A DNA stretch of 64,000 nucleotides from Hormiphora californensis (GCA_020137815.1 CM035351.1:2046001-2110000); one strand, 5' to 3'. Counted from the stretch's first letter, positions 42,001 to 48,000 are shown. The notes: a model not told the origin generated them from the letters alone. Translations and numbers: made by a program.

Positions 42001-45000
42001 CCTTTCCAGTATTCGAGCACACAAGAAAATAGTGTATTGTGAAACATTGGAGGAGCTGAGTCAACACATCACAATTGAGCGAATAGACATACCTGATGCA
42101 GTGAAAGCGTAAGTTCAATCAGACCCCACATTTTGAAGCTGCAGTGTGAGTGGCCGTAACGCGCTGTGTCACAGAGGTAGATCATTGCGCGCGGAGAATT
42201 TATCACGCGCTGTCTTGTCGCGACTGAACGCAGGTTGAAGGTTCAATTTCAAGGGAGCAGACCAGACGCTTGTACTTGGAACCACACAAAAAAAGATGGT
42301 GATCATCATACCAAATCGGTATATCAGAAAAACACCCCATACTGAACAGATTTCAGTTGGTTTGGGAGTTCCTTTTTAATCTTTTTGTGACCAAATACCG
42401 ACATACAAATCAAGGGACTGTCTCTTCAGTAGGAAACAATAACACACTGTAATTTGAATTATCAAAGAAATTGATCGTAAACTTCAAAGACAATTTCATG
42501 GTCCGCTGAACTTTTCTCGAAACTGAATTACTTTGGTTTTTCTGTAATTTTATCGCTTCTTGTGCTTTGACACTGTCCCCTTGGTTAGACTCTCATGCCT
42601 AGACTGGAAGTGCCTCACAGCTTCAACTACCCCATTCTCATGAGCATACTACCCAAACTCGCTTCTCTGTTCTATGAAACTCTCCTGTACACTATGAAAC
42701 TATCAATTAGCGGTTGCAGTCTCGCCCGAAATGTGAGAACAGGTGGGATCATATTCTGATTACTTGCAGTATGGTAGCTGCGGTCTAGTTGGTAATAAGA
42801 ATATGAACCCGTTTGTTTGGCACTCATTCAGACGTGGCCGTTCCCGCTGAATTGCTAGATTCTCTCTCAAAAACGTGTCCAGACAATCTCTCCCTCGGTC
42901 TAAAATTCTAAAATCATAATTCTCGAAGAATCTCTCATAGTCTCTGGCGTTTCTCTCCGGTTACTGATGATGGGTGGGCCGTAACTAGATGTTTCCCCAA
43001 GGTGCTCCTGTCGTTTCCTAGGCGCTGGCTGCTCTCATGCTCCTTCACCCTTTCCCTTAGAGGCCGTGCCGTAGCTCCGATGTAGACTTGGGAGCAGTGT
43101 CTGCATGTGGCCTAGTACACCACGTTCCTGATGTTGCATGGGAGCTCGGCTTGGTGCAGTCTGCAGTTGCAAGTGGGTGGTGGGGCAACCTTCCGGACTA
43201 GGGCTGTTTTGACTTCACTCTTCACTGTTCTCCCGCTTGTATGCAATACATTTCCAAACAGCAGAATTTTCCGTACCATGCATTATCAACCTAAAAAAGA
43301 TGTTAGAGCTGCGGATCTGATTTCTCTCAGAGAGTGAAGTGTTTCAATAGACAAGGTAACACGAGATATGTTGGTACTGGAAAATAAATTAACCGTAGCT
43401 TTCAATTACACTTGGGTAATCTTCATCAGCGGAGTAAAGAGTTTCTTTAGATACTCGAGGATGATGGCAATGGCATTCTCATTGATGAACTTGGCAATAT
43501 GTGACTCAACAAGGAGTAGGAGGAGACTCGGGATCATCCTGCTGCTGAAGACGGCCACTGAGCTGCTTCATGAAACGTACAACTTGAGCACATCATTCAG
43601 ATACGTGTAGTTGAAAACAATATCTAGCATTGCCTTGCTCATTTCAACGTATTTCTTCTTTTTTACTGGAAACATTTGTTCGACCGACACGGCTCTATAC
43701 CAGCACTAGCTCTGTCTTCTCCTGGTGGATCTTCATTGTCTTGATCCAAGACCTGAATGAACAGGTTACTTTGCTCCAAAAAGAGCGTTGTTTGACCCCT
43801 CAGAAATGTTGTTAGTTCGGTGTTCTCCGTTCACCGTTCTGAGATAATAGCTCCACAGCAGTTTAGCAATACATTTCCAAACAACGGGATTTTCCGTATG
43901 TAGGCATCTTTGACCTGAATAAGATGTTGTAGAGTAGTAACTTACTTTCTTCATGTCACACAGTTCAGACAGTTTAGTTGCCTTAAAGTTCAAGAGAGGT
44001 TTGTTGAACGCCATGTTGTTAGTAGGAAACTTGGTCCAGTTCAATTCATAACTCAAAACTCCAGTTTCTGTCTGTTCTTCACTCTCACTCGGCCGGGGAA
44101 CTGTTTCCTGTTCGCCGCGACCGCCAGCACAGTCCCTATCTGCTCCTTCTTCGATGATACCGTGGCAACGCACATGGAAGTGAGGGCTACATTCCGTTCC
44201 ACTGCCTGGGAGAGAGAAAATAATGATTAGAAATAAAGGATCGAAGAGAGTCTAAATTTGAATTATCATATTGTAGTAAAACGAATGAATCAAGTAGAGT
44301 GTGTACCTGAGTGTGATAGGGGACCTCTGATAGCAGTGGTGACATGGCGTAGATATCGACATCTTTGCCCCGTACCATCGGAGGCTCTGGAACGAGGTGG
44401 ACATCTCCGTTGTGTCCCACGTAGGTCCATTGGCCGGAGAACTCGGTACTGTCCTGAAACAATAAATACATTTACTTAATGTCTGAATAGGGAAAGATGT
44501 TACATAGACTTAGAGATATAATACAGTTATTAAAACAGTAAACACATTACACACAACCCACAAATGACTTACAGTTCTCATCTCACATATTTCCATGATG
44601 TTTGTTGCTTTGAAGTTGATCATGGGTTTGAAGAACTTCTTTGATGTTATGGGATACTTCCGAATATCCTTGATAATCGTGATTGCACGTGCTCTCACAA
44701 GAGGATCTTTATGGGCTGGAGATTATTATGCATAAGTCAAGGAGCAATTGTGTGGGGAGGGTAAATTCTTTTTTCTGGAAACATTTGTTCGACCGACACG
44801 GCTCTGTACCAGCACTAGCTCTGTCTTCTCCTGGTGGATCTTCGTTGTCCTGATCCAAGACTAGATGACATGTTTTTTTGATCCAAAAAGAGATCTAAGG
44901 GCGTTGTTTGACCCCTCAGAAATGTTGTTTGTTCGGTGTTCTCCGTTCACCGTTCTGAGATAACAGCTCCAGAGCTGGGTACTGTAACGTCCATCCATCC

Positions 45001-48000
45001 ATGTAGCCGTCATGTAACTACAGAAGACGGCAGCCTCTGGAAAGTCAGTCAGGATTTCCGCCTCCAAGTATAGCCAGGCAGAGATGATCTCATCGGACGG
45101 GAGATGCGGTAGTCCATAGCGTAGTTTTAATTGAAGATCCCTATTGCCTTTCCAGCCGAGAATTTTCTTTCTTTTCAATACATTTCCAAACAGCGGGATT
45201 TTCTTTTCATGGCTAGGATTGGTTGTCATGCTTGAGCTATCGAAATCAGCAAACTGTGAAGGCGGTTCAATTATCTGAGGTCCACGGGATAGTGTTACCA
45301 TGCTCGTATCCAGGTCCAAGATAGATGTAGATTGAGCATCGGTAGACACGAGATATGTTGGTACTTGGAAAACAAATTAACCGTAGCTTTCAATTACACT
45401 TGGGTAATCTTCATCAGCAGAAAGAGTGAATGGGTTGTGTGGTGTATTCAATACATTTCCAAACAACGGGATTTTTCTTATCTAGGCGACCTAAAAAAGA
45501 AGTTAGAGCTGCTGATCTATAGTACCTGCGCTGAGTGTGACAGGGAACTTCTGAACGTAATGGTGAACGTAGATATTGTGTGAGATCCTTGCCTCTCATC
45601 ATCGGCGGCTCCTGTATCAGGTGAACCTTGCCCGTGTGTCCAATGAACGTCCATCTTCCTTTGAATTCTATCCTTTGAATTCTATCCTGTTCTAAAATAA
45701 TAGAATATTTAGTTAGTTATAACGTCGGCATCCTCCTTGGCAAGGTGCTGCCGCACCAAAAGTATCTCGTTAAGGATATGACCGGCTCCATGCTCTATCC
45801 GCCAGTTCAACTTGATGTTAGAATATACCTTTAGTTTGGCAATACATTTCCAAACAACGGGATTTTCTATGTAGACCTGAAAGAACTGCTTTCCTCCGTA
45901 TGTAAACTCCTCCGGGATATCAAATGTGGGGGTATCAGGAGTTGCTGGGTGTTTCATAGCTCCCTTCCTCACTCGTCTGACAGTCCTTTTCAGGTTCGCC
46001 TCCGCTGGAAATTTGTAGATAGTTTCGTCATCTGCTGTGTTGGTCACACTGAGGACGACATTCAGTGTTGGTTCGTTGCAAGTTAGTGCTGCTAATCTGA
46101 CGGAGGATTTCAGTCCTGCAACTTTCACACCGACGATGTCCTCTTGATGTATGTGCTCCGGTTCTCTTATCACTGCATACGGACGGTCCCCGGTGGTGGT
46201 CAGTCTGGCCGGGCACTTGAGATGGATTCGTTGGTTGCACTGCCAGTATGTCTGTGCTGCTCCAGATTTGAGTACTTTCCTCCTCTCAGTTGGTTGGCTC
46301 TTTGAGGGAACAGTAACAACCGGCCAATGATGGATCGAGCCTGATTTCTGCAATACATTTCCAAACAACGGGATTTTCCGCCAATAAGGGAGTCTGCTGC
46401 ATGGTTGCTTGAGTAGAGGGGGACTGTTATACACCGTTGATTAGGAAGGAGGTGGGTGCAGCGTAGGGGCGAGAGAGATCCTTCGCTACTTTGTTAGTTT
46501 TGTAGCGTTAGTTTTGTTTCGTTTCCGCTTGAGAAGATCAGTGAATATTTTCCCTTCTTCCAGGCTGGATTCAGTAGTATCAGGATCGTTGGAGATAAGG
46601 GCTTCCTTAGCCATGTCAGTCCATTTCTGTCTTTGGTCGCTGGCTTCCTTGTCGACGTGAGGTTTCTTGTTCGGAGTGTATTAACTGACGGTCGTGGATT
46701 GGTCCGTAGATGTAGTAATGACCCAGGAGAAGACGTTCACTTTCTCATTGAGGTGGTTGGTGTTGAGGGCGGGGCGAGAAGAAAGTCAAGATGGGGACTC
46801 AGATTCTACTGAAGGGCAAAGAGAAGATGTTCTTCGTTGATCTTGGTAACTTTTGACACGGTTCGAGGAGGCTGAAGAGAGAACAGGACGGAGAAGGTGA
46901 TGAGGTGGTGGTCAGAACCAGTGATAACGGAGGGGTTGACTTTCCAGTTGGTGTAGTTCACGTAGTTCACGGTCGTGGATTGGTCGGTAGAGGTAGTGAT
47001 GACCCGGGAGAGAGATGGTCCTTTAGTGCTTTAATGGTCGCCCCTTTTTACCAGGTCTCTTCAGTAGAATTCCATTGGATGACTTGGTATTCCGATGATG
47101 TAGGTAGTAGTCCAGAAGTTCGAGGACAGGAGGAGGACAGTTGTGAAGCTTAAGGCACTGTGTTACTTGGTCCACGTTGTCGAAGGCACCTTGGATGTCA
47201 AAGAAGATATGATATAAGTAACTGATGATTTTAGAAGGCGAGGCTGTGGTTTAAAAAGGTCCCCGTGTGTGATTTGAGAAGGGGTTGTGGTATTACACAA
47301 TGGGATCAATAACACCGGGTCTAATTTCAAACCTACCCAATTTGCTACATGAAACCAGCAACCAACCCTATTAGCATACCAATCAATTTGGTATGTGGCA
47401 TGCGACCTGATCACGGGTATATTGGATTCGGGTATACTAATTAGCTAATTACCCAAATAATTCTGCCCCTGGTTTCGAAATAGGAATACGTCAATGGATA
47501 AGGAAGAGACAAATTGCCCATGAAAAATAAAATCATTTGAAAAATTTCATTCATTCATAAAGTTAAACATGGTACTTCAAGGCAAATTTTTCCTTTTTCA
47601 TGAAATTAAAAATGTCAAGCTTGTCAACTTTTCAAGTTGTCAAATGTCAAGTCTCTTAAAACTTGAAACAAACTAAAGATTAAGCGTATCAATATTGAAT
47701 ACATGACAGGTTGCATTTTATAATTCCAACTATCAAGGCCCTTAGATTATACTGTCATGCTACCTCTTTACCCTGTTGTGTCTCAGTTTATGTCGAAGAT
47801 TGAACTCTTGCAGTTTATTTTTTATCTGGTTTGGTTTCCTCTGATCTTTATAAAGACTCTTTATAAAGAGCAGAAAAAAACTACACCAAAAGATCCCCAA
47901 AAGATTGAAGACTTTTTTTAAAGAGTCTTCACTCTTCACTCTTCAGCAAGCTTTACATTAATAAACAATTCGTGGTACTACATCGAGTTCACAGTGCTAG

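Follow-up and report, generated by a model that had tools for sequence, protein, structure and literature searches.

A one-strand mosaic of transposon coding pieces punctuated by a 28-nt repeat in an intron of Hormiphora californensis

The window analysed here is a stretch of 64,000 nucleotides (nt) of Hormiphora californensis (GCA_020137815.1 CM035351.1:2046001-2110000), and positions are counted from its first letter. Within one intron of a gene with CRAL-TRIO and RhoGAP domains it carries a block of about 5 kb made of short pieces of transposon coding sequence, antisense to the gene wherever they could be oriented, among which a 28-nt direct repeat recurs six times. We read the block as a putative single-copy, slowly growing, one-strand antisense bank of transposon scraps, built by templated repair together with local duplication and predicted to be a likely source of small RNAs; judging from sequence features, we give this reading a probability of roughly 0.45. 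The strongest alternative is neutral scrambling of an older transposon nest by tandem duplication and loss, and copy-choice reverse transcription comes next. The 28-nt repeat, missed in the initial annotation, is the most unusual feature of the block.

The growth of small-RNA source loci is usually ascribed to transposons jumping in. If the preferred reading is true, material would have been acquired without transposition, from coding scraps that include DNA transposons with their introns, and lineages would differ at a recurring repeat. The locus is compact enough for dissection, with one intron, six repeats and two comparable species. Should the neutral rival hold instead, clean and strand-preserving scrambling would mimic a PIWI-interacting RNA (piRNA) cluster, a caution for cluster prediction from sequence only.

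Composition and strand of the mosaic

The block map holds 22 pieces of 28-705 nt (Table 1); a range of about 70-705 bp replaces the 100-500 bp given initially. Every piece oriented by a tool is on the minus strand, antisense to the plus-strand host gene, as the initial annotation had claimed for all recognisable pieces. Among 51 of 85 open reading frames (ORFs) searched against Pfam (32 minus, 19 plus), transposon domains were found on three of the 32 minus-strand ORFs (FLYWCH, E 1e-7; GIY-YIG, E 0.003; RVT_1, E 0.01) and on none of the 19 plus-strand ORFs. The Pfam search of read-through windows, covering 66 of 102 (33 minus, 33 plus), gave GIY-YIG in two of the 33 on the minus strand and nothing in the 33 on the plus strand.

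With 44777-45175 as query, a full HMMER search found 116 homologues; of the 19 longer ones examined, 17 carry Pfam MULE and seven also FLYWCH. With the profile built on the 116 homologues and with tblastn, over six frames of the whole window, four MULE pieces were mapped where three had first been counted, all on the minus strand (45169-44768, 43858 to about 43550, 46272-45879 and 45277-45215). The segment 42691-43237 is matched end to end, with 29 differences, by one 1433-nt multicopy contig of a related species (organism B, below), which fixes the Penelope piece. Among longer proteins, none of 474 candidates was a homologue of the FLYWCH piece.

All pieces identified by tools are transposon coding sequence, belonging to MULE, Penelope and non-long terminal repeat (non-LTR) elements. 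The initial annotation had named five transposon groups: MULE and the Penelope GIY-YIG endonuclease are supported by tools and the LINE reverse transcriptase weakly so, while the names pogo, hATm and LINE endonuclease have no database match. The pogo label of 42540-42690 is presumed from motif likeness, Pfam being blank there. The hATm name of the exon pieces is likewise presumed from motifs; database searches for hATm transposase homology were blank and exon alignment gave 0 of 24, these being weak searches. Pfam scans of the block ORFs and windows showed no LTR-retrotransposon domain and gave U1, U3 and U4 no family name. None of 90 stretches was confirmed in metagenome scans, a further scan gave no matches, a PDB sequence search was blank, and the best score in the ESM atlas (0.84) was uninformative.

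The hATm-like pieces are exons of a minus-strand gene, because there is an excess of differences at third codon positions, GT and AG sites stand at the exon edges, and exon-intron-exon contigs occur in two samples. Paralogous pieces differ mainly at third positions (25 versus 13 and 11; for A versus A2, 16 versus 8 and 9), and a splice site with intron bases is present at all seven exon edges examined. Exon B of the three-exon piece is 63% identical to B2.

Table 1. Pieces of the intronic block and the host exons on either side of the intron.
Feature	Position	Strand	Basis
Host exon, end of CRAL-TRIO domain	42011..42108	+	CRAL_TRIO_2 E 6e-4; GT donor at 42109
Pogo-like helix-turn-helix scrap	42540..42690	-	by eye; Pfam blank
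Penelope-type GIY-YIG endonuclease, 3' piece	42691..43237	-	22.8 bits for Pfam GIY-YIG (cut-off 22.6)
Repeat copy R1, 28-nt core and ~47-nt shared extension	43244..43318	-	
U1	43319..43493	.	multicopy; hATm-like label presumed; partial second copy at 45341-45427
M2, MULE transposase C-terminal piece	43500..43859	-	MULE profile E 7e-13, placed at 43858 to about 43550
Repeat copy R2 with extension	43860..43926	-	
A2, hATm-like exon piece and beginning of its intron	43927..44060	-	source contig; codon-position bias vs piece A
hATm-like three-exon piece, two whole GT-AG introns kept	44061..44765	-	splice sites; family name presumed
M1, MULE transposase piece, behind catalytic domain	44766..45175	-	E 3e-46
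Repeat copy R3, core only	45176..45203	-	crossed, 0 differences, by second-sample contig
U2, MULE N-terminal scrap	45204..45340	-	45277-45215 = P0006 residues 13-33, 71%, E 9e-5
Partial second copy of U1	45341..45427	.	
Repeat copy R4 with extension	45449..45520	-	
B2, hATm-like exon piece	45521..45710	-	intron ends both sides; 14-nt tandem duplication; source contig
U3, presumed hATm-like	45711..45828	-	no database match
Repeat copy R5, core 45840-45867	45829..45880	-	longest MULE-like reading; top-scoring 13-mer of 127,918
N-terminal MULE piece bearing a FLYWCH zinc finger	45881..46350	-	Pfam FLYWCH E 1e-7; profile E 2e-17
Repeat copy R6, core only	46351..46380	-	
U4 and two overlapping LINE-endonuclease-like scraps	46381..47030	-	label by eye; Pfam blank
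Non-LTR reverse transcriptase scrap	47031..47300	-	Pfam RVT_1 E 0.0095, below cut-off; second search E 0.016
Host exon 3' of intron	50178..50364	+	in frame with exon before intron; exons after it match RhoGAP

The 28-nt repeat

The six copies start at 43244, 43867, 45176, 45449, 45840 and 46351, all in the same orientation and at intervals of 595, 1281, 245, 363 and 483 nt. They are the only matches in the 64 kb, all within the block, and 100 shuffles gave none. The repeat is present six times, other pieces at most twice. Its six cores show a mean of 1.5 differences per 28 nt and have a left edge common to within 0-7 nt. On the right the likeness extends for up to 47 nt in four copies, and in all four of these the 9-20 nt flanking the core carry indels or length differences.

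Read on the minus strand, the repeat encodes an NPxxWKCI-type peptide. A position matrix of the motif after RTNN in the 116 MULE homologues, its columns picked after a weak alignment had been seen, placed five of the six copies within the top six of the 127,918 13-mers of the window; R1 fell outside the top 15. As its coding frame indicates, the repeat most probably comes from a second MULE subfamily, of which it is a sense scrap. A spliced leader, a tRNA primer site, an LTR end and a Helitron end were considered and rejected, since there is no invariant terminal dinucleotide and no fold and the MULE reading explains the repeat.

The repeat extensions resemble minus-strand splice acceptors at 43299-43300 and 45499-45502 (branch-point-like motif, pyrimidine run and AG), 14-19 nt before the core. 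This likeness may be due to chance, the same bases aligning codon for codon with the MULE frame. Two proteins, P0048 and P0056, are decayed MULE frames with a common insertion, in which the MULE reading stops about where M1 ends; they were rejected as the same array elsewhere, the repeat peptide being absent and the downstream match unconvincing.

Assembly, copy number and termini

Contigs were compared from X1 (sample S1), X5 (sample S2, from a different study) and X7 (organism B, a related species); 11 runs from four studies contain part of the block. The single-copy depth of X1 is about 31, and the assembly may have been made from S1. Contigs of X1 at depth 30-34 cover 41700-42720, 43867-44804, 45389-45757 and 47105-48444, and contigs of X5 cover 42112-42580, 44087-44804, 44963-45326 and 45714-45997. 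Among the contig pieces listed (n=24), at least 12 of the 23 piece boundaries are bridged with at least 31 letters on each side, at least six of them in X5, and none crosses the whole block. Each flank is covered by one contig, at single-copy depth in X1 (31 and 34). Most bins within the block stand at 1.5-8 times single-copy depth in X1, with relatives at 85% or more elsewhere in the same sample; the bins of U1 reach 5-7 times and those of 46381-47030 reach 2-3 times.

No inverted pair exceeded the shuffled background when 42110-42700 was compared with 47000-48420 (best score 25, shuffled maximum 32), no target-site duplication (TSD) did so at the block edges, and the block holds no A or T run of eight or more and no poly(A) tail. 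The block is not a misassembly, and not a multicopy mobile unit either, because contigs bridge at least 12 of its 23 boundaries, those of S1 at single-copy depth, and no terminal inverted repeat (TIR), TSD or tail flanks it. Both had been raised in the initial annotation as ways in which its interpretation could fail, and neither came about: no multicopy termini were found on the block. Its further statement that the pieces abut without TIRs, tails or TSDs stands as regards termini and tails; however, six copies of the 28-nt repeat stand between pieces.

The only 13-nt exact direct match joins 42420-42432 in the left flank to 47055-47067, a copy that lies within the LINE piece and away from the block edge; about 0.1 such 12-mers are expected by chance.

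Order, junctions and growth of the block

Along the sense strand the MULE pieces fall at profile positions 414, 41-167, 414, N-terminus, 301-451, 413 and 382-492, which is non-collinear. The order of pieces is scrambled, never inverted. Likewise, hATm-like B2 stands before A2 in the block; the source contig has A2, 65 letters, then B2. Deletion from intact elements alone is therefore insufficient to produce the block. The introns kept at the exon edges examined point to DNA or unspliced RNA as the template, and no mature mRNA was copied. Local duplicates are present as well: M1 and M2 (89%), the two copies of U1 (92% over 90 nt), a 43-nt duplication (46688-46730 and 46969-47011) and a 14-nt one. 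Coincident breakpoints of M1 and M2 were considered and discarded, since M2 just runs on as MULE beyond the end of M1. The initial proposal of fragment capture in place of whole-element insertion agrees with the scrambled order and the lack of termini, but an older nest could also have been scrambled, without inversion, by tandem duplication and random loss.

Six joints inside the block are listed, two within one piece, two from the hATm-like source and two between different pieces. The cross-piece joints among them link 45326 to 43866 in X5 and 43493 to 43860 in organism B; both end no more than 7 nt from the sharp edge of the repeat, and the latter leaves out exactly the M2 piece. Because both end at the repeat edge and the organism B joint skips just M2, this sequence pattern suggests that the content of the locus changes at the repeat. 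Bins of organism B without cover (around M1, U2, U4 and the endonuclease scraps) were not counted as absence, and only the contig that skips M2 was used. A path over R5 at depth 42-50 can be pieced together in organism B, shown by no contig among those listed, and serves as a lead only.

Growth of the block is likely to have proceeded by repeated breakage and templated repair beside the repeat, plus local duplication, with the repeat as a putative recurrent break or landing point. New pieces would have been copied from transposon DNA or unspliced transposon RNA via template switching. The available text on animal Pack-TIRs describes gap filling with template switching at short microhomology and single-copy cases as common (PMC8277862). 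The common strand may have been set by selection and not by capture chemistry, antisense pieces being kept since a plus-strand transcript would give small RNAs against several transposon families.

Predicted small-RNA role

The locus would presumably be transcribed and processed into piRNA or endogenous small interfering RNA (endo-siRNA). A plus-strand transcript of the block is antisense to all pieces and somewhat U-rich (T 0.30, A 0.25). Since relatives are present elsewhere in S1, targets exist for most pieces. The content of the block (coding scraps, several superfamilies, no termini found) appears to be a stronger argument for such a role than the strand statistic, which over 12 pieces gives p of 0.0002 at even odds and 0.03 under a 3:1 intronic antisense bias. 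In ctenophores, according to the part of PMC6211395 available to us, piRNAs occur alongside abundant endo-siRNAs, and clusters of the multi-mapping kind map to transposons. An intronic block would need retention, an alternative last exon or 3' end, its own promoter, or a nuclear or siRNA route, and the step by which the initial annotation had the block read from the host pre-mRNA is the weakest of that interpretation. AATAAA occurs on the plus strand at 47526 and 47960, where an alternative last exon might end.

Several results weigh against the preferred reading. Counted over five families, the strand rule has p of only 0.03 (up to 0.06) at even odds and 0.24 under the 3:1 bias, and the per-piece values treat duplicated pieces as though they were independent. 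In Drosophila, as far as the consulted text of PMC13226689 goes, piRNA production is set off by an antisense fragment carried in a cytoplasmic transcript, within an exon or 3' untranslated region (UTR); an intron would be a poor piRNA precursor if the same held here. The three-exon hATm-like piece stands at depth 30-35 in S1, a single copy without a close relative there, and so has no evident current target in that sample. The repeat is no more stable in folding than its shuffles (z -1.1 to +1.2), and none of 18 Rfam matches reached threshold, with no CRISPR repeat matched. The clustering of piece edges near the repeat (5 of 16 edges lying within 12 nt) was given no weight, its statistic being circular because the repeat itself is counted as a piece. 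Finally, the alternative joints were seen in short-read contigs at a likeness of 85%, the letters between being unread, and may derive from other loci.

Alternative explanations

The strongest rival, which we regard as unlikely but serious, is that the block is functionless debris of six or seven nested antisense transposons scrambled by tandem duplication and random loss, the 28-nt piece having served as crossover homology. The strand would then be explained by sense copies disturbing host splicing. Tandem duplication with loss reorders without inverting, and the local duplicates listed above fit such a process, as does the S2 joint between 45326 and 43866, which is readable as a 1461-nt tandem duplication; the family-level strand p of 0.03-0.24 is in keeping with it too. 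However, random loss should leave some termini and non-coding parts, and the block edges showed no TIR, TSD or tail, nor was there a tail-like run inside. The core of the repeat is also much better conserved than the neighbouring bases, and the organism B joint across exactly one MULE piece is simpler as a later gain.

Alternatively, a reverse transcriptase may have jumped among nuclear, possibly sliced, transposon transcripts, repeatedly entering or priming at the 28-nt piece, so that strand would be set by chemistry, as for the virus-LTR hybrids of Aedes piRNA clusters. One step would then account for both the coding-only transposon content and the common strand. The repeat has a sharp sense-3' edge and a sense-5' extension varying from 0 to 47 nt, the pattern of truncated reverse transcription, and 28 nt is the length of piRNAs in non-bilaterians (PMC6211395, in part). 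In the consulted part of a study of Aedes, 543 of 614 LTRs had the same polarity as the nearest viral fragment (10.1101/127498). We nevertheless consider this route improbable: intron bases are kept at all seven exon edges, searches of the block turned up no poly(A) tail, no LTR and no tRNA-like primer, and the sharp edge shifts by up to about 10 nt between copies of a repeat already explained as MULE coding scrap.

Very improbable, in our view, is an origin as cargo of a non-autonomous element (Pack-MULE or Pack-TIR, or Helitron) filled by gap repair, with termini since lost or decayed. The predominance of MULE scraps and the kept introns would suit it, and single-copy Pack-TIRs from template switching are common in animals as far as PMC8277862 could be consulted. 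Yet the best inverted pair stays below the shuffled maximum, both flanks stand at single-copy depth as one contig each, and the contents are other transposons, not host genes. The joining of unrelated reads through short repeats during assembly is scarcely credible, even though none of the listed contigs covers the entire block and S1 may be the assembly source, for at least 12 of 23 boundaries are bridged, at least six of them in another study's sample.

Comparison with known systems

The block shares with flamenco (flam)-like unistrand piRNA clusters the presence of one-strand transposon remnants antisense to the presumed transcript. As described in the accessible part of PMC10643416, such clusters are large, enriched in Gypsy LTR elements, arrived by insertion and have proven piRNA output. 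In contrast, the present block is 5 kb, intronic, scrambled and repeat-punctuated, consists mainly of DNA-transposon coding scraps without termini and has a small-RNA output that is predicted. Its identified content (MULE, Penelope and non-LTR) shows no Gypsy LTR enrichment. Antisense insertions of the Tirant type are similar in that host transcription could read antisense transposon sequence; in the text seen, they consist of one inserted element in a 3' UTR or cytoplasmic transcript (PMC13226689), whereas the block has about 22 pieces in an intron.

Loci of endogenous viral elements (EVEs) with LTRs in Aedes aegypti likewise hold interspersed, co-oriented pieces of several invaders, and capture by template switching has been proposed for them (10.1101/127498, in part). 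These loci exceed 50 kb and tie viral fragments to LTR retrotransposons, while in the block no LTR element was detected by Pfam and introns are kept; the spliced junctions and tails of a mature-RNA template are absent. Pack-MULEs and animal Pack-TIRs share DNA-level gap-filling capture with template switching and can carry introns (PMC8277862, in part), but the block is without TIRs or TSD and what it carries is coding sequence of transposons belonging to several superfamilies. Multicopy termini of the Helitron type are absent too, both flanks standing at single-copy depth in X1.

In a CRISPR array, a short direct repeat alternates with invader-derived sequence. The block resembles such arrays in its near-identical short direct repeats in one orientation, its invader-derived intervals and its content differing between lineages; however, the intervals are uneven (245-1281 nt) and often composite, and the repeat is a transposase scrap without a stable fold. 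We know of no acquisition enzyme for the block, and the resemblance would seem to be one of layout only. A bolder reading is a long shot: an early-branching animal would possess repeat-guided acquisition, with a fixed 28-nt repeat marking the addition of scraps in set orientation to feed piRNA or endo-siRNA, CRISPR-like in outcome and not in parts. The CRISPR analogy for piRNA loci has been published, for viral pseudogenes in the part consulted (PMC4574747). No description of a repeat-punctuated array of transposon scraps was found in the open-access literature, supplements apart, as far as those texts could be consulted.

Host gene and surroundings

The gene has plus-strand exons across 41.1-53.0 kb, encoding CRAL-TRIO and then RhoGAP, and five of seven exon translations match CRAL_TRIO_2 or RhoGAP in Pfam. 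The mosaic lies inside its 8.07-kb intron (42109-50177, plus strand), and the exon ending at 42108 joins the one starting at 50178 in frame; the exon matches thus bear out the placement in a RhoGAP-gene intron made initially. Within the same intron, 49623-49769 is an exon-like open frame with acceptor-like and donor-like ends, whose inclusion in the RhoGAP gene would meet a stop.

Outside the block, strands in the window are mixed, with hAT at 34.3-35.4 kb on plus and LINE reverse transcriptase at 29.7-30.9 kb on minus. The region 28800-38400 contains a decayed LINE on minus (RVT_1, E 3e-4), a hAT element on plus (Dimer_Tnp_hAT, E 2e-8) and a plus-strand Cys/His-rich frame that is LINE-ORF1-like by eye.

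Of ten protein clusters looked up, two held the only named relatives, which belong to Pleurobrachia bachei and Mnemiopsis leidyi and point indirectly to a ctenophore as the probable host. A short inverted-repeat element with 26-nt perfect arms stands at 48425-48529 (also at 53344-53506 and 976-998), and its bin depth in X1 is 84,548 against a single-copy depth of about 31; it is abundant in organism B too. At 8391-9271 a fold-back element of about 880 nt with long, near-perfect inverted arms was seen directly in the sequence, and at 3093-4454 there is a plus-strand repetitive Thr/Pro/Lys-rich frame of 453 codons, mucin-like by eye. Tandem repeats include a minisatellite at 55678-55997 (49-nt unit, 6.3 copies) and a GC-rich satellite at 58866-60724 with units of about 10 nt and higher-order periods of 20-125 nt.

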